The translations under genes were made by a program, and so were the position numbers. Below, in pieces: positions 2,413 to 43,806 of a stretch of DNA of 43,899 nucleotides. Each line of letters begins with the position of its first letter. Positions within the stretch are counted from its first letter, which is position 1. Under the pieces are notes generated by a model. It was not told the DNA's origin. It saw only the letters and a list, made by a program, of their open reading frames with translations, and did not search any database. Origin of the DNA: Candidatus Woesearchaeota archaeon (GTDB lineage Archaea > Nanobdellota > Nanobdellia > SCGC-AAA011-G17 > UBA489); NCBI GenBank assembly GCA_964374125.1, contig CAYJXL010000002.1, positions 1-43,899 on the forward strand, given 5' to 3'.

Positions 2413-3432
2413 ATGAACGAAACAATTGATCTTCTTCAGTACCTTCCAACAGACATCATAACGCAAGAAGAAAGGAAATACCCATTGCACGTACAACACG
2501 ACGAAATCTCGATAGGCCTAAGTTACCAAGCACCGTTGCATAATCAAACAGGCGAATGCGGCACGCAAGAGTTCTCCTGCACTATACCTCGCTACATAGC
2601 AAAGAATGAGCGTACCTTCGAAGTGCTCGATCTTCTGCAGGCAGAGATGGGAAAGACACAGAATGGAACCCTATCATTCTCAAATTGTGAACCGAAGATT
2701 ATCAACGCAGTTATGCGGTGGTTCGACCAAGAAGGATTGCTAGATAAAAATAAATGGCGATGGAGTACTAAGGTTAATATTAATGAACCGATAGATCAAG
2801 CCCGCAAGACCAAAATAGAGGGGGATTGCACTGACTATTGGCTTAGCAAGACGAAAGTAACAAAAGAACAAGCGTATCCTAAAAGAGTAACTTACGTAAA
2901 ACAATCACCACACAAAGAACCGCAAAACAAAGGAACGCTGGTTCTAGAGTACAGAAACAACCTCTTTAGCCAGGTTATCAAAAATTTAGTAAGGAAGGTA
3001 ACCTACGAACAGATTACAAACGAACAACCGGAGCTCATCAGAGGTTATATGCGAGGGATTATCGCTGGTGAGGCATGCGTTAATGACGACCCAAAAAGCA
3101 GGCATTTCACAGTGCATATATCTGCTACAAAGCCTGAAGAAAGAGCGATTTATAAGAACTGCTTAGAAAATATCGGCTTAGAGGCAAAGATTTATAGCAA
3201 CTACAAAGAGATGTTAATCTCCAGATTAAAAAATCTTATCCAACTATTGAATCTACGATTAATGACTCTCAGCCCACGCAAATATGCAAAATTCCTCTAC
3301 ATGATGCAAAGGTATTCCGATATAAAAGAAAAAACAGGTTACTTCATGGGGGAGAAAAAGGGCATATGGAACAAGCACCCTCAAGAGAAAATCGATAAGA
3401 TCATCGAGCTATACAAAAGTGGGATAACCTGA
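2413..3432 (+). CDS. LAGLIDADG-like (homing-endonuclease fold) protein that ends inside an HTH module
   Basis: 339 aa. 'LIRGYMRGIIAGEACVNDD...HISATKPEERAIYKNCLENIGLEAKIY..ISRLKNLIQLL' looks like a LAGLIDADG motif plus its beta-sheet scaffold. A weaker first pseudo-domain lies around 'LDLLQAEMGKTQNGTLSFSN'. The TGA at 3430-3432 cuts an HTH repeat in half. Confidence 0.55.
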   Translation: MNETIDLLQYLPTDIITQEERKYPLHVQHDEISIGLSYQAPLHNQTGECGTQEFSCTIPRYIAKNERTFEVLDLLQAEMGKTQNGTLSFSNCEPKIINAVMRWFDQEGLLDKNKWRWSTKVNINEPIDQARKTKIEGDCTDYWLSKTKVTKEQAYPKRVTYVKQSPHKEPQNKGTLVLEYRNNLFSQVIKNLVRKVTYEQITNEQPELIRGYMRGIIAGEACVNDDPKSRHFTVHISATKPEERAIYKNCLENIGLEAKIYSNYKEMLISRLKNLIQLLNLRLMTLSPRKYAKFLYMMQRYSDIKEKTGYFMGEKKGIWNKHPQEKIDKIIELYKSGIT

Positions 3433-3519
3433 ACCGAAGACATAGCAAATCATGTAGGTGTCAGTACAATCAAAGTAAGCAGAGTGCTAAGAGAAAGCAA
3501 TTTGCGTAAAAAAAATTAG
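3433..3519 (+). other. in-frame post-TGA extension encoding the recognition half of the interrupted HTH module
   Basis: In the frame of 2413, 3433-3516 reads TEDIANHVGVSTIKVSRVLRESNLRKKN and ends at TAG 3517-3519. It completes '...KIDKIIELYKSGIT' into a module matching the two HTH repeats of the next ORF. Confidence 0.5.
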
Positions 3520-3911
3520 TGAACTACAGCGAAGAAATCAAACAAAAGATCATAGCGTATATAAAAGATGATCCAACAATGTCGAACGAACAAGTTGCAA
3601 AAGTATTCAATATAAGCAGATCAGCAATACAACGAGTACGTACAAAATACCACTGTAGGAGACCACGAAATACAATTAAAACACCACAAGAAAAAGTTGA
3701 TCGTATCATTCAGATATATCGACAAAACCCAACAGCGAAACTGAAAGATATTGCGTATGAAGTTGGCGTAAGTGATAATGTCGTGTCAAACGTTCGAAAG
3801 AGATACGGTTTAACGCATCTAGGGTACATGCATATTATCGGAAATAACAATCGAAAATATAAACAACAAAATAAAAATAAACTGCTCAATAAAGATAAGT
3901 CAAAAGTTTAG
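3519..3911 (+). CDS. tandem helix-turn-helix protein (two HTH repeats)
   Basis: 130 aa with a GTG start. The repeats are 'EEIKQKIIAYIKDDPTMSNEQVAKVFNISRSAIQRVRTKY' and 'QEKVDRIIQIYRQNPTAKLKDIAYEVGVSDNVVSNVRKRYGL'. The GTG overlaps the upstream TAG by 1 nt, directly after an A8 run. Confidence 0.55.
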   Translation: MNYSEEIKQKIIAYIKDDPTMSNEQVAKVFNISRSAIQRVRTKYHCRRPRNTIKTPQEKVDRIIQIYRQNPTAKLKDIAYEVGVSDNVVSNVRKRYGLTHLGYMHIIGNNNRKYKQQNKNKLLNKDKSKV

Positions 3912-3931: not shown

Positions 3932-4336
3932 TCATCTATAAGATTTTTGTCGTGCTTTCCGCGGCTTAGAATCATTCGGTTTGTGAGGTTCGTTCACACG
4001 ACTGTCGTCCACGATAAGATGCCGATCGTAGCTCAAAAAGTCTTGTCTCAATTGCTTGTTCTTCGTAAATTCAACCAACGCTTTTGCAACACATCCTCTC
4101 GCAGCTTCCGCTTGCGCGTGCCATCCGCCGCCAAAGACATTGATGTCGACATTGATCTTCTTTGCGTAATCGCCTGCAATCTCCAAAGGTTCTTGTACCA
4201 ACAGCCGCGCCATCTTCGGCCCATACGTATCAAGCAGCTGATGGTTAATCCGAATGAACCCCTGTCCATCCCGCAACGTCGCTCTCGCTATCGCCCTCTT
4301 CCGTCGTGATGATACATGAACAATCTTAGTTGCCAT
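3932..4336 (-). CDS. rps9: 30S ribosomal protein uS9
   Basis: 'SSRRKRAIARATLRDGQGFIRINH...GGGWHAQAEAARGCVAKAL...DSRVNEPHKPN..KARQKSYR' is the canonical uS9 pattern, including the C-terminal ..SYR. Confidence 0.95.
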   Translation of the reverse strand: MATKIVHVSSRRKRAIARATLRDGQGFIRINHQLLDTYGPKMARLLVQEPLEIAGDYAKKINVDINVFGGGWHAQAEAARGCVAKALVEFTKNKQLRQDFLSYDRHLIVDDSRVNEPHKPNDSKPRKARQKSYR

Positions 4337-4685
4337 AGATTACTGGCCTCTTCATCTGTTTTTTCTCGTGCACTGCTATTGGAACTCCAGGAGTACAAAT
4401 ATCTTCGGCCATCATCACGGGGATAAACAAATAATCTTCTCTTCTTCGTCTTGTCAGGCGATACTTATTATTGACAATTCCAATCTGCCGCTGTTCATGC
4501 ATAACGTCCAAATAATGAACAATAGCGAGATTAGTAAGACTAATTCCAGCTCTTGCGGCTAACGCTTGTGCTCCACTAACAACCTCGGAAAGCGTTGGGC
4601 TTCTCCCCTCCATCCTCCGAACAGCTTGGACAGCAACTGAAATATACAGCGTCAAGTTCATTTCACGAAGATCATTCTCATCCAT
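4326..4685 (-). CDS. hypothetical protein inserted between rpl13 and rps9 (possibly a winged-helix fold)
   Basis: The ORF fills the 351-nt rpl13-rps9 gap. With Met10 (MDENDL..) as start it begins 2 nt after the rpl13 stop. It overlaps the rps9 start by 11 nt. I recognise no family. Confidence 0.45.
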   Translation of the reverse strand: MDENDLREMNLTLYISVAVQAVRRMEGRSPTLSEVVSGAQALAARAGISLTNLAIVHYLDVMHEQRQIGIVNNKYRLTRRRREDYLFIPVMMAEDICTPGVPIAVHEKKQMKRPVIYGN

Positions 4686-4687
4686 TG

Positions 4688-5110
4688 TTAATTCCTCCCC
4701 AGGTGGAAACATAATTCCTGTAATGTCATGTATTTTAAGCTTTGCGTCTTGCTGACATTCGCCCCAGCAACAGTAGCAAGCGTCTTCCCCTCAAATTCTT
4801 TTGGAACGCCGACATAGCACATAACTCGCTGCAGTGCTGTTTTGCCCTTAAATTGCCTGTACGGCAACATCCCGCGAATGACGCGCTTCAAGAACCGATG
4901 CTCCTGTCTGTAAACAAACGGCCCAGTCTTGGGCATCCCCCGCTCCAGTCGGTGCTTGTAATGATCCAAGAGCGGTCTTCTGTTCCCTGTAATGACTGCA
5001 TGTTCGCTGTTCACAATCACAATCGCATCGCCAAGCAACGCCCTCTTCGCCGCATAGCTCGCAAGCCGTCCAACAACCAAGTTCGTCGCGTCAATGATCA
5101 TATTAGCCAA
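4688..5110 (-). CDS. rpl13: 50S ribosomal protein uL13
   Basis: 'MIIDATNLVVGRLASYAAKRALLGDAIVIVNSEHAVITG...' is the typical archaeal uL13 N-terminus. 140 aa. Confidence 0.95.
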   Translation of the reverse strand: MANMIIDATNLVVGRLASYAAKRALLGDAIVIVNSEHAVITGNRRPLLDHYKHRLERGMPKTGPFVYRQEHRFLKRVIRGMLPYRQFKGKTALQRVMCYVGVPKEFEGKTLATVAGANVSKTQSLKYMTLQELCFHLGRN

Positions 5111-5465
5111 CGATCCTCACCCCTTTGCCTGTGGGATTCTCTTTGAGCAACGCTAATAACGTAATCGCCTTGCCTGTTTTGTTAATGCTCGCAAGCGCAC
5201 CGTCAGAGAACTTCCACGCTGCCACTGTAATCTTCCGCTCGAGAACATCATTCCCCAAGACTTTTCCAGGCACGACAATGAGCTCTTTGTCTCGACACAC
5301 CTTGTTTAGATCTCTAATGGTAACCTCACGCCTGATTCTCGTGGGCCGTTCCAAATCAGAAGCCACTCTTCTCCAGATCTCGACCTTATGCTGAGCGCTC
5401 GCTACTTGCAACATCTTGATCATCTCCTGTAGTCTTGGATTCGTAGGGCCTGTTCGTACTGCCAT
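5103..5465 (-). CDS. rpl18e: 50S ribosomal protein eL18 (L18e)
   Basis: 'MAVRTGPTNPRLQEMIKML...RPTRIRREV..LNKV...VVPGKVLG' matches L18e, a family found only in archaea and eukaryotes. Start set at Met8 (ATG at 5465). Confidence 0.9.
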   Translation of the reverse strand: MAVRTGPTNPRLQEMIKMLQVASAQHKVEIWRRVASDLERPTRIRREVTIRDLNKVCRDKELIVVPGKVLGNDVLERKITVAAWKFSDGALASINKTGKAITLLALLKENPTGKGVRIVG

Positions 5466-5619
5466 GGTAAAACGCTGAAGAATCATCGCTACTGGACGCG
5501 TGAGCTCGCAGCGTATCTTTTGCTTCGAATGAAAGCTTTATAAAAGCATCGATTCCTCAGCAGGCAAAAATGTATACACAAGACTGATTCCATTTAAAGT
5601 ATTTAGCATAGGGTACGTT

Positions 5620-5988
5620 TTATTCAAGTGGTATGCGCTTCAGACCGATGCGATCATAAACACGATCGGAACTAAGTATCTCATCGCCTTGCGCGAAGGC
5701 CGCATGCAATGCGTCAAAGGTATGCAGCTTGTTCTCCTGCATGAAGTGAGCCGCAAGCAATAGTTTCGTCCGATCCGCACCACGAACCTCCGCAATCTCA
5801 GTCACGTCCATAACAATACGTTCTGGATCAAGTTGCATGCGTTCTGACAAGAGAAGCATCTCGATGACGGTGACAACAGATGTCCAAAGTCTATCTCGAT
5901 GCTGTTCAAAAAGACGTTTCGCTGAACTCTTCAACCAATCAGTCGTCTTGATAAGTGCAAGGAAGAAATCAGTATCAGCATACGTCAC
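5620..5988 (-). CDS. vapC: PIN-domain ribonuclease toxin (VapC family)
   Basis: 122 aa. The acidic residues fall in PIN positions ('YADTDFF', 'VIEML', 'TFDALHAA', 'LSSD'). It overlaps the upstream AbrB-like gene by 4 nt. Confidence 0.75.
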   Translation of the reverse strand: MTYADTDFFLALIKTTDWLKSSAKRLFEQHRDRLWTSVVTVIEMLLLSERMQLDPERIVMDVTEIAEVRGADRTKLLLAAHFMQENKLHTFDALHAAFAQGDEILSSDRVYDRIGLKRIPLE

Positions 5989-6221
5989 GCTCTCACCTGG
6001 TAAAGTGCAGTCTCTCGAATCAATTTCTTAAGGCGCTTGAGAGAGAGCTTCCGTGCTTTGCCAGCGACTTCCTGAAGATCCTTTACAGGATCCTTAGGTA
6101 CAGGAAGAAGGACAATCTCCCCAGCTGCGGGTACTGCAATGAACCGATCGCCATATTTCTTGCGGAGTTCCTCTTTTAGATACAAGCGTCCTTTCGCATC
6201 GCATATAGTAGTAAATGTCAT
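5985..6221 (-). CDS. vapB: AbrB/SpoVT-type antitoxin (VapB family)
   Basis: 'ICDAKGRLYLKEELRKKYGDRFIAV..GEIVLLPV' is a swapped-hairpin AbrB-like motif. Start set at Met23 (ATG at 6221), which has 'tttatata' about 25 nt upstream. Confidence 0.7.
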   Translation of the reverse strand: MTFTTICDAKGRLYLKEELRKKYGDRFIAVPAAGEIVLLPVPKDPVKDLQEVAGKARKLSLKRLKKLIRETALYQVRA

Positions 6222-6325
6222 ACGATAGATGTAGTGGGGAAGTATATAAACTTTTCCCACCAATAACTGTTTGGGGTATTGGCTCAACTCAGCCTAAAGT
6301 ACGAGAGATCGGCAATTCGTAACCA

Positions 6326-6333
6326 TTATATAA
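6326..6333 (+). promoter_or_regulatory. TATA box (ttatataa) about 28 nt upstream of the orphan tRNA-Leu 5' half
   Basis: Position and sequence fit an archaeal tRNA promoter. The intact tRNA copy has no equivalent A/T-rich box at about -28. Confidence 0.5.
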
Positions 6334-6357
6334 TATTTGAACTGATTTGCATCACCC

Positions 6358-6404
6358 GCGGGAGTCGCATAGCCTGGTCAAGTGCGCTAGCTTGAGGGGC
6401 TAGT
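6358..6404 (+). repeat. orphan copy of the 5' 47 nt of tRNA-Leu(GAG) (att-like direct repeat)
   Basis: 6358-6404 is identical, base for base, to 9548-9594 (acceptor 5' strand, D-arm and the complete anticodon arm). Confidence 0.9.
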
Positions 6405-8742
6405 CCTTGGCAAAACCGAAGATATCATTGAATTGTTGTCCATAGTAAGCTCCGCCCAGATAGAGATTCAGTGCCATCTCTGGAGAGAAAACTGTAGATC
6501 CGGAATCACGAGCCGAAGGCAAGCGACTAACAACTTGTATCTGATGTGTAACGGGATTGTATTCTAAGATCTCATCAGTTGGACCAGATCCTGTAGTATA
6601 TCCGCCAAAGAGAAGGAATGTACCCCTCGCCGGATCGAAGAGTGCATTAAGTCCTGTTCGCCCGTTCGGCAATATTTCCGGAAGCGTGACTGCTTGCCCT
6701 GTCGCTGGTGTAAACTTAATGATGTTTAATGCAGATGTGGAACCACCGAAGAGGTACATCGACTGATCATTTGTGTTGTATGCGCCTGCACCGAACGCGA
6801 ATTCTCGTGGCAACTGCGCACTGAGCGTCCTTAAACGCTGGCTGGCAGGCCGCGCTGGATCCCACTGCTGTATCGTTTGCAGGGTGCCTCCAGGCGCATT
6901 GCCTCCAAAGACATACACATTCTGGTTAGCAGGATCAGTGATGGCAACGGCATTGCTTATGCCGCTCGGAAGGACCTCCTGCTGCAGTCTGATCTGGCTT
7001 CCAGCAGGTGCAGAAGGATTGATTTCATAGATCGACGCAAGAGGGTTATACTGGGAGTCAGAGCCGCCAAAGACAAGAATCTTATTTCCATTCCACGCTG
7101 CCGCGGCACCAGAAAAAGGTGTCGAGAATCGATCGGCGAGCATGTTAATCGGTGTGAACATATTTGTTTCCTGAAAGGCAAGTATTGTGTCAAGAGGGTT
7201 ATACTGGGAGTCAGAGCCGCCAACGAGGTAGGTTATTCGACGGTTAGGGTCTCGGACTGCTGCGCTCCGCGATATTACCGAAGGCAGCGCTTGTATATTA
7301 TATGCTTGGCCGGTCTGCGGATTGAATGCAACAATCTCAGGGTGATGGTAAGGACCACAGTCTGGTGAGCCAAGGCCGTAATTCATACCACCTGCGACAA
7401 CAAGGAGCCCTGTCACAGGATCTGCAACCGCTTTCAGCTTCCATCGTCCCTCAGGCAGTTGCCCAACCCGAACAAACCCCTGACTTGGGTTATTGGGATC
7501 AAAAGCAAGAATGCCGTTGTCGCAAAGAAAGTTTTCTCTCGGACCAGGACCGATGTTACCGCCGATGAGGTAAAATTTTCCTGTTACTGGATTAAATGCT
7601 TCCGCAGCATCGGAACGTAGTGGAATTGTTGTGAGTAATGTAAACGTTCCGCCTTGCTGTCCTCCTGGTATGAACTGATAAAGCTGACCGATCCAATTGC
7701 GAGGGCTGATATTACGATTACCGAACGCGTAGATTACCCCTGTTCGAGGATCTCGCGCTGCATTTTCAACATAAAAAGGCCCACTTGGGGGGGATACTAA
7801 CAAACGACGAATGCGCGAGCCTGGCGGAAGGTTTAGATCATACACTGTCACTCTGTTGTCAGTCGTAGACCAACCGAAAAGATATACAACATCTGCTACA
7901 GGATCGTACGTGCCAGAAATCGCTGAGTCGTAGCTCGGAAGACGATCTGGCAAAAGTATGCACTGATTGGTATCCGGATTATACTCCATGATCTGATCTC
8001 TTGGCGGATATGGCGGATCAGCAGCACTACCGCTGAAGATGTAGGCTTTACTTCTTCGTGAATCCCAAACAGCGACAGCTAGATATACCCTGTATGGACA
8101 ATGAGCGACGATGCGTGATTGAAGGTCAACAGGATTGTGGGGGTTGATCTCAACAACATTATCGACAGTGTATATCAAATGTCCGTCAATGCTATATGAG
8201 CCACCGAATATATACATAATGCCTGTCAGAGGGTCAATGACCATTGTTGATGAGAATATGCCGCGAGGAGCTGCCGGTGTTGCTGCAGGCAAAGATCCTA
8301 TGATCGTACTGACAGGATGACTATTGGTATATGCATATGGTGCAGAAATCGCAATTCCGCCCTGACCTCCAGGATCGATGGCAACAGCTTGCATATATAT
8401 AATTGGTAGCCCGCCTGGGACAGGAAAATCAAAACTACCTCCCGGCTGAAGCTGAAGAATAAGAAACTGTCCTGGACCAAGAGGTCTAACGCTTAAGATT
8501 GCGCCAGGACCGAACGCTGCAGAGAAATCTTCTCGCCATGGTTTGAAGCTGATAAGAATGTAGACGATTTGTGCTTGCGATGCAACATTCTCGACCGTGA
8601 GCTGCGCCATCTGTCCTGGAATGTTCGTGCTAATGTGAATCTTCGGAATCAAACCATTGGAACCCGGTGTTCCGATCTGCACTTGTGCAAATGTCACCGG
8701 GAGGATCATCAATATGCCCATGACGAGAGTGACGATGCGCAT
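6400..8742 (-). CDS. secreted Kelch-repeat / beta-propeller protein
   Basis: 780 aa. Signal peptide 'MRIVTLVMGILMILPVTFAQVQ'. At least 10 Kelch-like blades are recognisable ('YIFGGS','YLFGW','YLIGGN','VVAGGMNYG','YLVGGSDSQYNPL','LVFGGSDSQYNPL','VYVFGGN','MYLFGGS','LLFGGY'). Confidence 0.8.
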   Translation of the reverse strand: MRIVTLVMGILMILPVTFAQVQIGTPGSNGLIPKIHISTNIPGQMAQLTVENVASQAQIVYILISFKPWREDFSAAFGPGAILSVRPLGPGQFLILQLQPGGSFDFPVPGGLPIIYMQAVAIDPGGQGGIAISAPYAYTNSHPVSTIIGSLPAATPAAPRGIFSSTMVIDPLTGIMYIFGGSYSIDGHLIYTVDNVVEINPHNPVDLQSRIVAHCPYRVYLAVAVWDSRRSKAYIFSGSAADPPYPPRDQIMEYNPDTNQCILLPDRLPSYDSAISGTYDPVADVVYLFGWSTTDNRVTVYDLNLPPGSRIRRLLVSPPSGPFYVENAARDPRTGVIYAFGNRNISPRNWIGQLYQFIPGGQQGGTFTLLTTIPLRSDAAEAFNPVTGKFYLIGGNIGPGPRENFLCDNGILAFDPNNPSQGFVRVGQLPEGRWKLKAVADPVTGLLVVAGGMNYGLGSPDCGPYHHPEIVAFNPQTGQAYNIQALPSVISRSAAVRDPNRRITYLVGGSDSQYNPLDTILAFQETNMFTPINMLADRFSTPFSGAAAAWNGNKILVFGGSDSQYNPLASIYEINPSAPAGSQIRLQQEVLPSGISNAVAITDPANQNVYVFGGNAPGGTLQTIQQWDPARPASQRLRTLSAQLPREFAFGAGAYNTNDQSMYLFGGSTSALNIIKFTPATGQAVTLPEILPNGRTGLNALFDPARGTFLLFGGYTTGSGPTDEILEYNPVTHQIQVVSRLPSARDSGSTVFSPEMALNLYLGGAYYGQQFNDIFGFAKD

Positions 8743-8743
8743 G

Positions 8744-9049
8744 TTAGCATTTCACCATTATTCTTATCTGTTGCGGAAGTTGCGCGCATGTGATCTCATT
8801 CTCTTCGGAAAAAATTTCATGGAGCGTTACGTCCTGCGGGGGCGCACTGACTTTGGTGGCCCATTCTTCATTTCTTTCTTCCTGTTGGAGCACACGTTCT
8901 TGCTCAACAGTTTGCGGGTGGGTGATCAGCTCTTGAGCATCCTTAATGGCATATGGTTGTGTGCTCTTTGATAAAAAAAGAACAAGAGCGAAGACCCCAA
9001 TGATTAGTATTCCATAAACTATTACATTACTTTTCCTCTTTTTGACCAC
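8744..9049 (-). CDS. small single-pass membrane protein (start uncertain)
   Basis: 'KKRKSNVIVYGILIIGVFALVLFLSK' is a transmembrane segment. A GTG at 9049 avoids the overlap with the integrase fragment; the longest ORF would start at 9136. The ORF ends 1 nt before the Kelch gene start. Confidence 0.35.
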   Translation of the reverse strand: MVKKRKSNVIVYGILIIGVFALVLFLSKSTQPYAIKDAQELITHPQTVEQERVLQQEERNEEWATKVSAPPQDVTLHEIFSEENEITCAQLPQQIRIMVKC

Positions 9050-9473
9050 CGGTTTGGTTACTCCCCAGTATTTTAATACCTTTCGGTTTTTTTGGGTACA
9101 TACCCAGCTTCTGGGGGTCTGCCGCAGCATGCTCAACGTATTGAGTCCTTGGAGATTCCATGTCCTCCTGCGTCACCTCGTCAAGGTTCTTCGTCGTAAA
9201 CGTGAGGAGCGTCATGAAGTGCCCCACGTTCGAGCTAAGCCGCGCAGCCCCGATCTTCTTCCGCGCCCTGTTGTGCACGGTCTTCCCGAGCCGCGCGTCG
9301 CGGACGTATCGTGTCACGAGTTCCTTGTTCCGCTCCGTCACGTTCGGATCCTGCAGGAACCGCTCGAGCGCACGCTCAAGCAAGCGTTCACACTTCCCCA
9401 GGCGCACGTCAACTTCTTCCATAGTAATCTTTTTAAGCACCGCTCGTCCTTCACCGTACGGGTGCTCGATCAT
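9027..9473 (-). pseudogene. tyrosine-recombinase/integrase N-terminal fragment (catalytic domain missing)
   Basis: 'ERNKELVTRYVRDARLGKTVHNRARKKIGAARLSSNVGHFMTLLTFTTKNLDEVTQEDME' resembles the SAM-like N-domain of archaeal and phage integrases. I saw no R..HxxR..Y catalytic region downstream in any frame. Confidence 0.45.
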
Positions 9474-9547
9474 GCACAGCGCCCGCCTTTATCAGGATTC
9501 GCCTGTGTTGCGGTCGCCGGTCACATGATCTGGTGCATCGCCCGGTT

Positions 9548-9633
9548 GCGGGAGTCGCATAGCCTGGTCAAGTGCGCTAGCTTGAGGGGCTAGTTCCTTA
9601 GTGGATTCGTAAGTTCAAATCTTACCTCCCGCA
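9548..9633 (+). tRNA. trnL: tRNA-Leu (anticodon GAG), class II with a long variable arm
   Basis: Hand-folded. Acceptor stem: gcgggag/ctcccgc. D-stem: gcat/gtgc. Anticodon stem: ctagc/gctag with loop ttGAGgg. Variable arm: 15 nt. T-arm: gtaag-ttcaaat-cttac. Discriminator: A. CCA is not encoded. Confidence 0.9.
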
Positions 9634-9693
9634 TCTTTAGCAACGCTCAACTAAGAAGAACTACAACTGCATAGTCTTTTTATTCACGAAAGT

Positions 9694-9701
9694 TTATAAA
9701 T
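9694..9701 (+). promoter_or_regulatory. TATA box (ttataaat) for the HEPN-MNT operon
   Basis: Centred about 27 nt upstream of the ATG at 9724. Confidence 0.45.
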
Positions 9702-9723
9702 ATTACAAATCACTAGTAAGTAT

Positions 9724-10086
9724 ATGAAACAAGAAGTCCAAAACTGGTGGCAGCAAGCCAAGGACGATCTCGATGCTGCCGAATACACCTTCCGTGGTGC
9801 ACGATACAGAATAGCTGCTTTTTTATGTCAACAAGCGGTAGAAAAGGCGTTCAAAGCGCTCCTGTTGGAAAAGACAGGGATAATCAGGAAAATACACGAT
9901 TTAGTTGAGCTAGGAAAAGATCTAGATATTCCAGATCGTTTACTAGCAGAAATAAAAGAGCTTACACTTGCTTACATCTACTCAAGATACCCTGACGTAA
10001 AGCAAGAGCCAAATCTAAAAGAAAAGGTCAACCAATTTCTTAAAAGCACAAAGGAGGCTATGCAATGGGTAGAAGAAAATCTCTAA
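9724..10086 (+). CDS. HEPN-domain protein (toxin partner of MNT)
   Basis: 120 aa. 'AAEYTFRGARYRIAAFLCQQAVEKAFKALLLEK..IIRKIHDLVELG' is the typical HEPN helical pattern with the R..H..L motif. It overlaps the nucleotidyltransferase gene by 22 nt. Confidence 0.8.
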   Translation: MKQEVQNWWQQAKDDLDAAEYTFRGARYRIAAFLCQQAVEKAFKALLLEKTGIIRKIHDLVELGKDLDIPDRLLAEIKELTLAYIYSRYPDVKQEPNLKEKVNQFLKSTKEAMQWVEENL

Positions 10087-10382
10087 AAGAAAGACTGGTG
10101 AACTTCAAAAAAACAGTTAACAGGGATTTTCCAATACAGACAATGATCCTCTTTGGAAGTAGGGCAAGAGGAAAGACTGGCAGAGACAGGGACGTGGACT
10201 TAATAATTGTAAGCCCCAGATTCAAATGGCTCGATTTTTTTGAGAGAGGAGCAAAAATGTATGATTACTGGGATTTAAGAATGCCAGCCGACTTTTTGTG
10301 CTATACGCCGGAAGAATTCAAGAAATTAAGTAGACATACAACCATCGTCTCTGAAGCAATCAAAGAAGGCATCAAGATTTAA
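10065..10382 (+). CDS. minimal nucleotidyltransferase (MNT-type antitoxin)
   Basis: 'ILFGSRARGKTGRDRDVDLIIVS' matches the GSxxxG...DxD motif of the polymerase-beta-like NTase fold. 105 aa. Confidence 0.85.
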   Translation: MGRRKSLKERLVNFKKTVNRDFPIQTMILFGSRARGKTGRDRDVDLIIVSPRFKWLDFFERGAKMYDYWDLRMPADFLCYTPEEFKKLSRHTTIVSEAIKEGIKI

Positions 10383-10412
10383 AGCCCATTCAGAAAAATT
10401 CGACCAATGATA

Positions 10413-10437
10413 GTAAGTTCAAATCTTACCTCCCGCA
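10413..10437 (+). repeat. orphan copy of the 3' 25 nt of tRNA-Leu(GAG) (att-like direct repeat)
   Basis: 'gtaagttcaaatcttacctcccgca' is identical to 9609-9633 (T-arm, 3' acceptor strand and discriminator). Confidence 0.9.
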
Positions 10438-10454
10438 TAAACACATAATGAAAC

Positions 10455-11303
10455 ATGAGAACAATTAAAGCAGACTTACGGAATTATTTGAGAAGCCGAA
10501 GCGACATGTCGGTTTTTGACTTCAACGACATCATCGATAGAGCGCATAAGAAGCTAGGCAACGGCGGAATTCTGGGTGTAACAAACTATCATGACGAGCG
10601 CTACGAACAATTTGTGCAACGCCCGGGCTACGAACGCAAAAATCTTGGAAACGCGGTCTACATTCCTGAAAAAGACATGCTCATTGTCAAGGGACAAACA
10701 ATACCAACAAAGGAAGGACCACTCTGTGCCATGGGTAGCCCTTCACACAAACACGTTCCTGAGCATCTATCTCTTGAGGAAACTATCAAAGTCGTTCAAG
10801 AGCAGAATGGCATGATCATTGTGCCAGGCCCGTATCGGCTATATGGTGTAGGCGCGTTCTTGGAAAGCCACTCTCATTATCTTGAATCATGTGACGCCAT
10901 CGAGGTTTTTAATGGGCAGGGAACACTCTGGCTCCCGGGACTCTTGCAACGACATGCAAATGAACGTGCAGTGACATGGTACAAACGAATGAAACAAACA
11001 TACTCGCATCTAGGAGCAATCACCGCCTCAAACGGCAGCTCGCTGCGCGAAATCGGCAGAAATAATACGTTAATGGAAATGCCAGAGCACTATGACATAT
11101 TTCAGACAAAAGAAGATGTTATCACAGTTCTACGCTGCGCGATACGTGAGAGTACGCCTGAACGTGCTGAACGCTACAGTGCATGGGGAATGGAGTTGAT
11201 GCATTTCCTGATCGTAAAATGGGATCACAATCCGCTCAGCTACTGGTGGAAGGGAGTCCCAAATGCGCATCTCGATCCGCTATTCAGGAACGAGAGTCTG
11301 TAA
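10455..11303 (+). CDS. PHP-domain-like protein with apparently degenerate metal-ligand motifs
   Basis: The PHP motif order is preserved but the ligands are altered. 'KADLRNYLRSRSDM' stands for DLHxHS..SDG, 'GVTNYHD' for ITDHD, 'IVPGPY' for ..HP, and 'ITASNGSSLREIG' for GSDAH...iG. 'AIEVFNG' is retained. Confidence 0.4.
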   Translation: MRTIKADLRNYLRSRSDMSVFDFNDIIDRAHKKLGNGGILGVTNYHDERYEQFVQRPGYERKNLGNAVYIPEKDMLIVKGQTIPTKEGPLCAMGSPSHKHVPEHLSLEETIKVVQEQNGMIIVPGPYRLYGVGAFLESHSHYLESCDAIEVFNGQGTLWLPGLLQRHANERAVTWYKRMKQTYSHLGAITASNGSSLREIGRNNTLMEMPEHYDIFQTKEDVITVLRCAIRESTPERAERYSAWGMELMHFLIVKWDHNPLSYWWKGVPNAHLDPLFRNESL

Positions 11304-11562
11304 CCAATAAAATTTTTCAAGCCAGAAAAACCGATGATCATAGTATTTGTTGAGGGACGAGGTCAGCAAAGTAAAGGGAAATGTATCCAGCCTTATCAGA
11401 CGGACAAAATTGCTCAAGTCAAAAAATCGCTGCTCACTGCAAAGTTAACCATAGCGAAGAACAAAGAAAACACTTATAATGAGAACAGATAAAACTGCAT
11501 GAATAGAAAAGCAAGCACCGTTAGGTATCAAAGTTATTTCAATTCTATATTACATAGGATCA

Positions 11563-11940
11563 GTGATTGGGGTGATTGTCGGGCTGATGTTTCTTCTCGG
11601 AGCTGGACTTATCGCAGCCATCATACCGTCTTTACGGCTGTTCAGCTCTATATTCGCCGGCCTCGCTATTGTCATCTTTGCGTTAAGCATACTTTCATTC
11701 TTTATCGGAAGAGACCTATGGAAAGGAAAAAATTGGGCTAGAGTAGTTATTATAGTAAGTTCTGTAATTGGATTAGTGATGGCAGTTTATTTCCTCGTTG
11801 GGGGTATTACGTATCACAGTGACTGGAGAGGTTACGCGGACATTTGCAATGGTATCATTGGTATAGTAACAGACACGCTCATAGGGGGCTACCTCATGTT
11901 TAATAGCAAGGTAAAAAAATATTTTTCAAAAGACCAATAG
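11563..11940 (+). CDS. small membrane protein with 4 predicted transmembrane segments
   Basis: 125-aa ORF with a GTG start and four hydrophobic stretches of about 20-24 aa. I recognise no family. Confidence 0.5.
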   Translation: MIGVIVGLMFLLGAGLIAAIIPSLRLFSSIFAGLAIVIFALSILSFFIGRDLWKGKNWARVVIIVSSVIGLVMAVYFLVGGITYHSDWRGYADICNGIIGIVTDTLIGGYLMFNSKVKKYFSKDQ

Positions 11941-11953
11941 AAGAAATAAGGGT

Positions 11954-12733
11954 TTATTTGATTTTCTTCACCAGCTTCTCAAACTCATCCAGCTTGTCAT
12001 CAAAGACTTCCACTGCCCTTACAAGGATTTCCTTCAACGTTAATTGTCCCCATGACTCTAAATAAAAGATAAAGGTTTCCTTGCTCGCAGTCACTTCAAC
12101 GCCATTCTTTTCAAGGATACCCTCATGTGATTCCCTCCACTTGAGAACATCCTTAATCTCTAGCCCCTGTCCTTTCTGTCCCAGGACGCCAGAAGGAATC
12201 TGCTCCAGAGATTTCTTGATGTCGCTATCCTTCGTCGTTTTTAATTCAGGAGAGCCGCGATAGTAAAGCAATCCCGGCGAGAACTTCGCATGATCCTTCC
12301 CTCGTCCAAGAACAGCAACAGCCTCCAGCTTCAATTCTTGATCCTCAGCAAGCTTCACAATAGGCATTTTCTCATGCACAGGAACACAATCCTTGTCCTT
12401 GCTCTCCAGACTGCTGCTGTACACCGTGCACGGTCCCTTCGCTTTTAATGCAAAAAGCAGCTGGCAATGATTGCACCCCTTGCCATTGCACTTGCAGTCA
12501 GCCATAAAGTTGTACGACTTCAAGTCCGTCTTGATCGGTATCAGTCCCAAGCGGTGCGCGATGATCTCGTCGTAAAGCGCAGAACTATTCTTCTGAAACG
12601 AGACCTCCTCAATCGCCAGTGTCGGCACGTAATTCATCACGTATCGCCTGATCATGTTTGCGATAGCCGGCGTGATGCCCTCGAGAACGAAAACAGCTTT
12701 GTTGGCGTCTTTGTGTAAAACCATAAATTTCAT
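11954..12733 (-). CDS. rpoD: DNA-directed RNA polymerase subunit D (Rpo3)
   Basis: 'VLEGITPAIANMIRRYVMNYVPTLAIEEVSFQKNSSALYDEIIAHRLGLIPIKTD' plus the Cys cluster 'CKCNGKGCNHCQ' match archaeal RpoD. Confidence 0.9.
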   Translation of the reverse strand: MKFMVLHKDANKAVFVLEGITPAIANMIRRYVMNYVPTLAIEEVSFQKNSSALYDEIIAHRLGLIPIKTDLKSYNFMADCKCNGKGCNHCQLLFALKAKGPCTVYSSSLESKDKDCVPVHEKMPIVKLAEDQELKLEAVAVLGRGKDHAKFSPGLLYYRGSPELKTTKDSDIKKSLEQIPSGVLGQKGQGLEIKDVLKWRESHEGILEKNGVEVTASKETFIFYLESWGQLTLKEILVRAVEVFDDKLDEFEKLVKKIK

Positions 12734-16253: not shown

Positions 16254-16301
16254 TGCAATATCGAGGCAGAATGAACTTTATATAATTAACGTTAGGCGTA
16301 A

Positions 16302-16315
16302 TTTTCGGGGGCGCG
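16302..16315. repeat. left arm of the inverted repeat flanking the AT-rich methyltransferase cassette
   Basis: 'ttttcgggggcgcg' is the perfect reverse complement of 17115-17128. The adjacent 'gttaggcgt' (16291-16299) pairs with 17179-17187. Confidence 0.8.
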
Positions 16316-16361: not shown

Positions 16362-17108
16362 ATGACTGTGTATAATGAACCACTTTACTATGAAATTGCA
16401 TTTAGCTTTGTTGATGCCAAAAAACAGGTAGATTTGTTTGAGAACTTTATTAAAGAATATAGCAAAATAAGAGTAAAAAGAGTTCTGGATATTGCTTGTG
16501 GTACAAGTCTACAATTAAGAGAAATGGCTAAAAGAAGTTATGAAGCAATTGGCTTGGATTTGAGTTCACAAATGTTGGATTATCTAAAACAAAAAACCGA
16601 AGAAGAAGGAATAGAAGTAGACACGATTAAAGCAGATATGACAAAATTCAATCTAAAAGAGAAAGTTGATTTTGTTTTTATAATGATGGGTTCTTTTAGA
16701 TTTAAAAACAATAAAGAGCTTTTAAAACATCTTGATTGTGTTTCTAATTCCCTTAAAAAAGGTGGGTTATATCTTATTGAAAATATGGAATTAAATTGGC
16801 TAAGTTTTAAGCCTCAAAGTTGGATTATGAGGAGAGACGGAATTGAAGTAAAAACAACTTACAAATTAGAGCAAAAAGATCCACTTTCTCAAATATCTGA
16901 AGAAAACATAACCCTAGAAGTGAATGATCATGGGAAAAAATTAAAATTTGTTGAAAAAAGAATCACGAAACACGTTTATCCTCAAGAATTTCTGACTCTT
17001 GTTAAACTGAATAATAGATTTGAATTTCTTGGTTGGTTTGAGCGTTTCAAGTTTAAGAAATTAAAGAAAGGAAGTATGGATAATATTGTTCTTTTGCGTA
17101 AAAAATAA
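16362..17108 (+). CDS. class I SAM-dependent methyltransferase, compositionally foreign (AT-rich)
   Basis: Motif I is 'VLDIACGTSLQL', followed by 'GLDLSSQML' and 'DFVFIM'. The first 60 nt are about 32% G+C, against about 55% in a 60-nt sample of the neighbouring ATPase gene. The protein is rich in Lys, Asn, Ile and Phe. Confidence 0.8.
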   Translation: MTVYNEPLYYEIAFSFVDAKKQVDLFENFIKEYSKIRVKRVLDIACGTSLQLREMAKRSYEAIGLDLSSQMLDYLKQKTEEEGIEVDTIKADMTKFNLKEKVDFVFIMMGSFRFKNNKELLKHLDCVSNSLKKGGLYLIENMELNWLSFKPQSWIMRRDGIEVKTTYKLEQKDPLSQISEENITLEVNDHGKKLKFVEKRITKHVYPQEFLTLVKLNNRFEFLGWFERFKFKKLKKGSMDNIVLLRKK

Positions 17109-17114
17109 TTATGA

Positions 17115-17128
17115 CGCGCCCCCGAAAA
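17115..17128. repeat. right arm of the inverted repeat flanking the methyltransferase cassette
   Basis: 'cgcgcccccgaaaa' is the reverse complement of 16302-16315. The second segment 'acgcctaac' lies at 17179-17187, after a 50-nt spacer. Confidence 0.8.
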
Positions 17129-17188
17129 CTTCTCCGCTTCGCTCCGACCACTCCCTGCAGGCTTTCACTTTGTTCAGGACGCCTAACA

Positions 17189-43752: not shown

Positions 43753-43806
43753 GTAGACTGAGGAAGTTAATGGGTGATAGCTTTTTATTCTTGCTCTTCA
43801 TGCTCT
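43753..43806. repeat. 54-bp sequence that is the inverted copy of window positions 1-54
   Basis: The reverse complement of 1-54 matches 43753-43806 at 51 of 54 positions by my alignment. The left copy runs off the window edge. Confidence 0.85.

Follow-up and report, generated by a model that had tools for sequence, protein, structure and literature searches.

This report concerns a HEPN-MNT gene pair, a putative toxin–antitoxin (TA) module, that lies between two exact copies of the 3' end of a tRNA-Leu(GAG) gene in a DPANN archaeon. The window, which is the whole stretch of DNA analysed, is a 43,899-nt metagenomic contig with a GC content of 46.4%. It is a chromosomal segment, with the genes for ribosomal proteins S9, L13, and L18e at 3932–5486 and for RNA polymerase subunit D at 11954–12733 as markers, and tRNA-Leu(GAG) is its single tRNA gene. 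It was compared with contigs of a sister lineage (L001 and L025), with contigs of an outgroup of about 80% nucleotide identity (L033–L035), and with Logan contigs from other sequencing runs, among them L044. The features of the locus are as follows, where att denotes an attachment site, ORF an open reading frame, MNT a minimal nucleotidyltransferase, and E an expectation value.

9548–9633, plus strand: intact tRNA-Leu(GAG) gene (Rfam, 50.3 bits; placed by ARAGORN at 9547–9635)
9609–9634, plus strand: attL of the HEPN-MNT insertion, its inner att copy, exact repeat
9635–9662, plus strand: insert-specific left flank, 28 nt, with no detectable homologue (against the flank of the sister cassette, p = 0.66)
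9663–9723, plus strand: cassette promoter region, homologous to the region 5' of HEPN in L001, with the TATA box conserved (alignment p = 0.0075)
9724–10086, plus strand: HEPN-domain protein, 120 aa, of the HEPN-T / PF05168 type (Pfam E = 2e-27)
10065–10382, plus strand: MNT, 105 aa, with the motif GSRARG...DVD (PF01909 E = 2e-11)
10383–10412, plus strand: insert-specific right flank, about 29–30 nt, with no homology to the downstream flank of the sister pair (p = 0.86)
10413–10438, plus strand: outer att copy (attR), the displaced original tRNA 3' end, still on its native downstream flank (collinear with L001, L025, and L033; also in L044)
10455–11303, plus strand: ORF282, chromosomal neighbour of the tRNA outside the insert (syntenic in the outgroup contig L033)

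The last 25 nt of the tRNA, GTAAGTTCAAATCTTACCTCCCGCA, occur exactly twice in the window, at 9609–9633 and 10413–10437. No further copy was found in the window with up to 3 mismatches allowed, and in a shuffle control none of 100 shuffles gave any match. The next base, t, is also shared, giving an exact 26-nt direct repeat, 9609–9634 and 10413–10438. The copies are 778–779 bp apart, and the DNA between them holds only a promoter and the overlapping HEPN and MNT genes. An earlier note on this DNA had described the recurrence of the 25 nt and the following t, had seen only a TATA box and the two overlapping genes between the copies, and had remarked that no recombinase lies inside. The coordinates of the repeat, the ORFs, and the Pfam matches bear out the first two observations. 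For the third, an integrase-family profile, built from the full-length phmmer matches of an integrase fragment described below, found no match within the insert.

The repeat consists of the T stem (GTAAG), the T loop (TTCAAAT), the other strand of the T stem (CTTAC), the 3' strand of the acceptor stem (CTCCCGC), the discriminator base A, and one base more. It therefore runs from the first base of the T stem to one base past the tRNA gene and encloses a dyad of 5 bp, 7 nt, and 5 bp. The core of a tyrosine-recombinase site, in its classical form, is a 5-bp dyad around a 7-nt spacer. Judged by this anatomy, the 26-nt repeat is a predicted classical target of a tyrosine integrase. Tyrosine integrases use three sublocations of tRNA genes, one of them the T stem-loop, and in archaea they favour the 3' end (PMC8371274). 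The locus thus shows three of the features by which tRNA-targeting elements are recognised: direct repeats of a part of the tRNA together with an intact tRNA, an unoccupied site in relatives, and a known att sublocation. A further one, an integrase gene inside the element, is absent. The earlier note had taken the duplicated tRNA 3' end for the footprint of site-specific integration; the anatomy of the repeat and the empty sites in L001, L025, and L033–L035, described below, agree with it.

A TATA-like sequence, tttataaata, is present at 9693–9702, about 27 nt before the HEPN ATG, and the transcript of the pair is probably leaderless. The HEPN gene precedes the MNT gene and overlaps it by 22 nt, both here and in all relatives examined. 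Structural relatives in the PDB are 1WOL, 1UFB, and 1O3U for the HEPN protein and HI0073 (1NO5) for the MNT. We found 115 HEPN homologues besides the window protein, and those with a source name come from DPANN archaea. His-58 and Arg-88, the latter in the sequence SRYPD, are invariant in 24 homologues, and the canonical Rx4-6H spacing is absent. This arrangement fits HEPN-T variants with an alternative upstream histidine, which have been described (PMC3710099). The NCBIfam MntA model NF047752 gives the MNT 25.4 bits, under its cutoff of 60. The pair thus resembles the MNT-HEPN modules, and the related type VII HepT-MntA systems, in its adjacent, overlapping genes and in the GS...DxD motif of the MNT. 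It differs from them in the missing Rx4-6H spacing, in the low MntA score, and in gene order: MNT-HEPN modules are very abundant in archaea and have the MNT almost always 5' of the HEPN gene (PMC3710099), whereas here the HEPN gene is upstream. The TA role of the pair is putative and is assigned from domain content. The ratio of nonsynonymous to synonymous divergence (dN/dS) between the window and its closest relative, a pair in the sister lineage, is 0.04 for HEPN and 0.12 for MNT, and because of these low values both genes appear to be under strong purifying selection and hence to be functional. The composition of the cassette was also compared with its surroundings, as the earlier note had proposed. 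The GC content of the insert is 38.7%, against 46.4% for the contig, which places it in the lowest 4% of windows of the same size.

Is the cassette a true insertion? In the sister contigs L001 and L025, the gene order is VapC-VapB-tRNA-ORF282, and both the cassette and a second, left-hand insertion described below are absent. The tRNA of these contigs is identical in sequence to that of the window, ORF282 has about 89–90% nucleotide identity, and VapBC has 86%. In the outgroup contigs L033–L035 the tRNA is likewise joined directly to ORF282. The order in L033 is S9-L13-L18e-HD-tRNA-ORF282-membrane ORF-RpoD, collinear with window 10409–11482, and no HEPN-MNT pair is present anywhere in the three outgroup contigs. 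The homology between the window and the sister contigs stops at the tRNA 3' end and restarts exactly at 10413, and the DNA upstream of the sister tRNA, including its TATA box, has its counterpart in the window ahead of 6358 rather than ahead of 9548. Compared with these relatives, the window has gained 3.19 kb at the tRNA 5' half and 0.80 kb at the 3' end. Because two sister contigs and the outgroup join the tRNA directly to ORF282, the comparison indicates that the HEPN-MNT cassette was truly inserted at the 3' end of the tRNA, with relatives preserving the empty site. The earlier note had called for such a comparison of loci with and without the insert, and had considered that all relatives might carry HEPN-MNT at this position with no flanking repeats; we found no relative that has the pair at this position.

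Because L033 has the same collinear order, the backbone tRNA-ORF282-membrane ORF-RpoD is ancestral and ORF282 is a chromosomal gene. Only four homologues of ORF282 are known. The same synteny led us to reject ORF282 as the mobile unit, as well as an exchange of ORF282 and the pair by excision and re-integration. A VapC (PIN)/VapB-like pair lies just upstream of the tRNA locus, at 5620–6287; it is kept in L025, and L033 has an HD-domain gene in its place. With VapBC upstream and HEPN-MNT downstream, the tRNA therefore has toxin–antitoxin pairs on both sides.

In a metagenomic contig such as the window, different strains may be mis-joined at short repeats, and the structure might accordingly come from an assembly chimera (or from a repeat arisen by chance). 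L044, a Logan contig from a different sequencing run, equals window 10252–11703 at 100% identity and crosses the MNT gene, the outer repeat, and ORF282. Two further Logan contigs from other runs, L042 and L043, equal window 8213–9577 and 8348–9594, also at 100% identity, and L043 terminates precisely at the end of the 47-nt repeat discussed below (9594). Furthermore, a partial tRNA end following the MNT gene must exist in real DNA whatever path the assembly took, and the shuffle control given above argues against chance. Since independently assembled contigs from other runs are 100% identical at the critical junctions, the structure of tRNA, repeat, and HEPN-MNT pair is confirmed not to be an assembly artefact, and we regard a chimera or chance repeat as extremely unlikely.

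The 5' side of the same tRNA carries a second insertion, and the earlier note's observation that this one gene has been hit from both ends is correct. The features of the left-hand side are as follows.

6358–6404, plus strand: displaced 5' half of tRNA-Leu(GAG), positions 1–47, the outer att of the left insertion (exact 47-nt repeat of 9548–9594)
6405–9547, no strand assigned: left-hand insertion of 3.1 kb, a decayed integrative element, absent from L001, L025, and L033
6400–8742, minus strand: Kelch-repeat protein (Pfam Kelch matches)
8744–9136, minus strand: 130-aa membrane ORF
9027–9473, minus strand: N-terminal fragment of a tyrosine integrase, a 148-aa ORF with no catalytic domain

The 47-nt repeat ends one base past the anticodon arm, as a mirror image of the 3' repeat. 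The DNA upstream of the copy at 6358 has its homologue in L001 and L025 next to the intact tRNA, and in L001, L025, and L033 the VapB or HD flank meets the tRNA directly. Residues ~20–107 of the integrase fragment (about nt 9152–9422) were aligned by phmmer with the first ~90 residues of proteins of 320–490 aa, and in 10 of the 10 full-length matches tested PF00589 (Phage_integrase) follows at about residues 160–340. In the window the integrase-family profile matches only at the fragment, over positions 1–90 of 380 (E = 7e-29). The fragment has a GC content of 60%, and 81% at third codon positions (GC3), in a contig of 46% GC. It begins 75 nt from the repeat and ends about 400 nt from any att site. 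A word-indexed search with it returned only the self-match, and neither it, nor the 130-aa ORF, nor ORF282 matches anything in NCBIfam or PHROGs. We interpret the fragment, from its alignment and composition, as a foreign tyrosine integrase that has lost its catalytic domain. An SSV-type split integrase was rejected, as the fragment has a natural N terminus, aligning from position 1 of the profile, and is not interrupted at an att site. Because the 5'-half insertion is bounded by repeats and contains a truncated integrase of foreign composition, integration followed by integrase loss has occurred at this tRNA locus.

A tRNA 5'-half target is unique, among archaea, to pTN3-like integrases (PMC8371274), and the left insertion resembles those of the Thermococcales in duplicating the 5' half of a tRNA-Leu. 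However, pTN3-type integrases belong to the SSV family, with the att site inside the gene, which is split on integration, whereas the fragment here lies 75 nt from the att site with its natural N terminus; it is not of that type. Adjacent to it, the Kelch protein, which is secreted and 780 aa long, has a host-like composition (GC 49%, GC3 43%), unlike that of the integrase fragment, and the left insertion looks like a mosaic on this basis. The stop codon of the Kelch gene lies inside the 47-nt tRNA fragment, and the gene has an internal 36-nt repeat, 7038–7073 and 7191–7226.

The left insertion also bears on the expression of the tRNA. The native TATA box, ttatataata at 6327–6336, is conserved in L001 and L025 and has stayed beside the 47-nt 5' fragment that was displaced. 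Upstream of the functional tRNA at 9548 there is GC-rich DNA of the element (9474–9547), which has no TATA box at the usual distance, so that this tRNA must now be transcribed from sequence of the element. The 5 nt immediately 5' of this tRNA, cggtt, are the same as in the tRNA flank of the outgroup contig L033.

Outside the window, the 25-mer was found only in tRNA-Leu genes, in one copy per locus. The possibility raised by the earlier note, that it is a dispersed genomic repeat unrelated to the tRNA, can thus be set aside. In JGI metagenomes and GTDB genomes it gave 16 matches, of which 15 are in tRNA-Leu(TAA) genes, mostly of Pacearchaeota. On two of these contigs, L027 and L026, the integrase gene that starts 72 nt past tRNA-Leu(TAA) is intact and encodes 398 aa (E = 5e-36 against the family profile, with PF00589). 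In L022 the same 72-nt flank and promoter are followed by about 14 integrase codons and then by unrelated DNA (L022 189–440). L023 has three direct copies of the tRNA-terminal sequence CCTCCCGCATT within 185 nt (478–660). From these arrangements, L022 retains the stump of an L027-type integrase and L023 an array of att scars, so that integration at the 25-mer sequence, followed by erosion to small scars, is visible in related archaea. Several of the contigs, L024, L030, L027, L029, L017, and L022, end within 2–200 nt of tRNA-Leu(TAA), L024 and L030 doing so 2 nt after it, which suggests that assemblies break here because the following DNA varies within populations. An apparent diversity-generating retroelement is also present on L027, at 5094–7736, and on L026, on the contig with the intact integrase. 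It comprises a reverse transcriptase (5094–6191), an Avd-like 23S_rRNA_IVP protein (6474–6839), and a target gene with an Lcl_C domain (6951–7736), with a repeat pair of 111 nt and 77% identity at 6198–6308 and 6955–7065.

The sharing of the 25-mer among loci raises the question whether a site-specific recombinase was needed at all. A small circular or linear DNA with the pair beside a tRNA-Leu 3' end, for example from the tRNA-Leu(TAA) of another Pacearchaeote, could have been inserted by Campbell-type homologous recombination through the shared 25–26 nt of identity. The identical 25-mer in tRNA-Leu(TAA) of several Pacearchaeota does provide homology across loci and hosts, and the pair has reached other sites with no signature of an integrase. 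However, the limits of the repeat, exactly the T-stem boundary on one side and one base beyond the tRNA on the other, are like those of integrase identity blocks, and to the left of 10413 there is no trace of more tRNA homology. A tract of 25 nt is also very short, and a donor with the pair beside a tRNA was not found in our searches. We consider this route improbable.

The pair has its closest relative (HEPN 89% aa identity; pair 84% nt identity) in six contigs from at least five samples, always directly downstream of the ORF282 of the sister lineage, 0.9 kb from the site used in the window. The sister insertion starts 24 nt past the ORF282 stop codon and extends to the promoter of the next gene, where the backbone resumes. 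Around it, two apparent remnants of a tRNA end or att site, an 'atctcatctcc' match and an alignment with gaps on the downstream side, did not score above shuffled sequences (p = 0.55–0.86). The unit common to the two copies is 9663–10383, that is, about 60 nt of promoter with the TATA box conserved and both genes; the 28–30-nt flanks are unique to the window. More distant homologues (55–68% aa identity) lie at stable places in the chromosome, such as behind the S6e gene or beside the PCNA gene, with no tRNA and no repeats.

The proximity of two pairs of 84% identity within 1 kb around the same gene in both lineages might indicate a local move, with the pair ancestrally downstream of ORF282 and displaced 0.9 kb upstream in the window lineage, or with ORF282 and the tRNA end as the mobile part. 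The outgroup contig L033, however, lacks the pair and is collinear across the sister insertion point, so that the arrangement after ORF282 in the window is the ancestral one. Furthermore, the synonymous divergence (dS) between the window and the sister is 1.4–1.5 for HEPN and 0.64–0.68 for MNT, compared with 0.42 for VapC, 0.50 for VapB, and 0.32–0.37 for ORF282 (0.32–0.50 over the three flanking genes), although HEPN and MNT are short genes and may both undergo faster synonymous change. Because the dS of the pair exceeds that of the flanking genes, the comparison suggests that the two pairs diverged before their hosts did and were acquired separately from a shared pool, rather than by a local jump. 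Local transposition after the lineage split is disfavoured by these values, and a local move of either kind is very improbable.

What, then, is the cassette? We lean towards the view that the 779-bp HEPN-MNT cassette is the remnant of a mobile element that was integrated by a tyrosine recombinase at the T arm and 3' end of tRNA-Leu(GAG), in a Pacearchaeota-like host. The attP site of the element, which would have contained the last ~25 nt of the tRNA, would have recombined with the tRNA through the tyrosine recombinase. This integration would have rebuilt an intact tRNA, with attL at 9609–9634, and displaced the original 3' end downstream, as attR at 10413–10438. Deletion in a streamlined genome would subsequently have removed the integrase and the remaining cargo, leaving two element flanks of about 29 nt and the HEPN-MNT pair with its own promoter. 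The pair may have been kept because it is functional and possibly addictive, as its loss may be counter-selected by the toxin activity. Three parts of this history are inferences: the action of an integrase in this particular insertion, a larger original size of the element, and a contribution of addiction to the persistence of the pair.

A number of points weigh against this history. The remnant model requires one or more deletions that removed everything except the pair and yet spared both att copies, and nothing else of the supposed larger element survives. A parent element carrying the pair or its flanks was absent from the viral, phage, plasmid, JGI metagenome, and GTDB genome sequences searched. 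The target of the left-hand integrase lies in another part of the tRNA, so that the fragment would serve as an analogy, not as the responsible enzyme, and it is related to the L027 integrase at the profile level only, with no significant pairwise match by BLASTP. The sister pair has no flanking repeat, and since it sits at a new site in this way, the pair can apparently enter new sites by a route that leaves no att duplication. Thus, the pair could also have entered an already empty att-att scar by a route without repeats, and not as cargo.

The individual searches for a parent gave the same result. In viral contigs, the 25-mer and both ~29-nt flanks were absent, a scan with the HEPN profile gave no match, and a scan with the integrase profile found nothing. 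The HEPN-MNT family had no member in phages and only two distant bacterial matches in plasmids, and exact look-ups of the window HEPN and MNT proteins returned no other contig. The cassette with its 25-mer inside larger elements or plasmids, for which the earlier note had suggested looking, was accordingly not found. Of the two origins that this note had offered, the last surviving piece of a larger island fits better, inasmuch as decay is visible at this tRNA and in L022 and L023, while its parent element did not appear. The other, a minimal att-flanked cassette mobilised in trans, found no support: the 11 other pair loci have neither repeat nor tRNA, and the cassette was absent from the viral, phage, and plasmid collections.

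In its fuller form, mobilisation in trans would mean that a circle of about 0.8 kb is excised and re-inserted at tRNA-Leu 3' ends, the integrase coming from a gene at another place in the genome or from a newly arriving element. Indeed, the two att copies are perfect direct repeats, and a promoter lies within the cassette. Integrases adjoin the identical 25-mer in related archaea, as in L027, and several targets would be available, as the 25-mer is common to tRNA-Leu(GAG) and tRNA-Leu(TAA). The synonymous divergence suggests horizontal movement of the pair, and bacterial att-flanked elements that lack integration genes are recognised and can be mobilised (PMC5704250). However, the window copy is the sole repeat-flanked one among 12 loci with complete pairs, and the others are not beside a tRNA. 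The searches revealed neither another copy nor a circular junction nor a variant of the window strain with an empty site, other assemblies showing only the occupied form. No family integrase is encoded within the 43.9-kb contig, and the sister copy has no att remnant (p = 0.5–0.9). We therefore regard mobilisation in trans as unlikely.

A further proposal, and an unlikely one, is that the HEPN-MNT pair is a free-standing, promoter-bearing DPANN mini-element that consists solely of a TA module and one tRNA-derived att site and which borrows co-resident integrases and spreads among 25-mer-bearing tRNA-Leu genes and lineages. If so, it would be the archaeal counterpart of integron TA cassettes or of cis-mobilisable elements (CIMEs), selected purely for addiction. 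If excision of the cassette in trans proved possible, no smaller att-bounded mobile unit would be known in archaea.

Toxin–antitoxin cassettes of chromosomal integrons are thought to stabilise their surroundings. Like the cassette here, they are promoter-bearing TA pairs of less than 1 kb between recombination sites, with no recombinase of their own. By contrast, the present locus has no attC hairpin, no IntI, and no cassette array, and its flanking sites are tRNA fragments. An integron gene cassette was ruled out on the tRNA-fragment sites and the absence of an IntI integrase from the window.

The remnant reading places the locus among known processes. CIMEs are defined by the retention of attL and attR and the lack of integration and transfer genes (PMC5704250). 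Those derived from streptococcal ICEs (integrative and conjugative elements) and IMEs (integrative and mobilisable elements) resemble the cassette in having kept their att sites and lost their recombination genes, by decay of an element integrated in a target gene at its 3' end. They differ in that they are bacterial, are usually several kilobases long, and have a demonstrated mobility, by accretion with an ICE that comes in, whereas for the cassette mobility is hypothetical and no conjugative partner is known. In archaea, gene capture by decayed tRNA-integrated elements is ascribed to She et al. (2001, 2002, 2004), as cited in a later source (PMC8371274). There, too, genes lie within direct repeats of a part of the tRNA, the tRNA is made whole again, loss or disabling of the integrase traps the cargo in the chromosome, and several events occur at one tRNA. 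In the classical Sulfolobus capture, an SSV-type integrase gene is split at its own att site, whereas the fragment near our cassette is truncated by deletion. The HEPN-MNT insert further differs from the Sulfolobus cases in having no trace of an integrase, in its DPANN host, and in being an unusually small remnant, of 0.78 kb. On this reading, the locus illustrates a known process, gene capture after integrase loss, and not a new mechanism, and it fits the definition of a CIME.

Knowledge of the mobile elements integrated in DPANN genomes is still sparse. The present locus provides a clean and comparatively dated example, in which one tRNA was targeted at both ends, with empty sites and with stages of decay in neighbouring lineages. 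On the remnant reading, it shows a streamlined genome stripping an integrated element down to a toxin–antitoxin pair. It also shows that the same pair reaches different sites in sister lineages.

Some other features of the contig deserve mention. A SAM-methyltransferase gene (S-adenosylmethionine-dependent; 16362–17108, 248 aa) has a GC content of 29% and a GC3 of 22%, the minimum of the contig, and is flanked by a GC-rich 21-nt inverted repeat (16295–16315 and 17115–17135). It looks like another foreign single-gene insert. Beside the ribosomal protein genes, a stretch of low GC content contains an ORF with a LAGLIDADG domain (2413–3432) and a 130-aa ORF (3519–3911) whose only domains are helix-turn-helix domains of the IS630 transposase type. 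Finally, a 54-nt inverted repeat, 94% complementary, is found at the contig ends, at 1–54, from the first base, and at 43753–43806, 93 nt from the end. This may reflect one repeated element that borders the contig on both sides, its copies in opposite orientations, or an effect of assembly.

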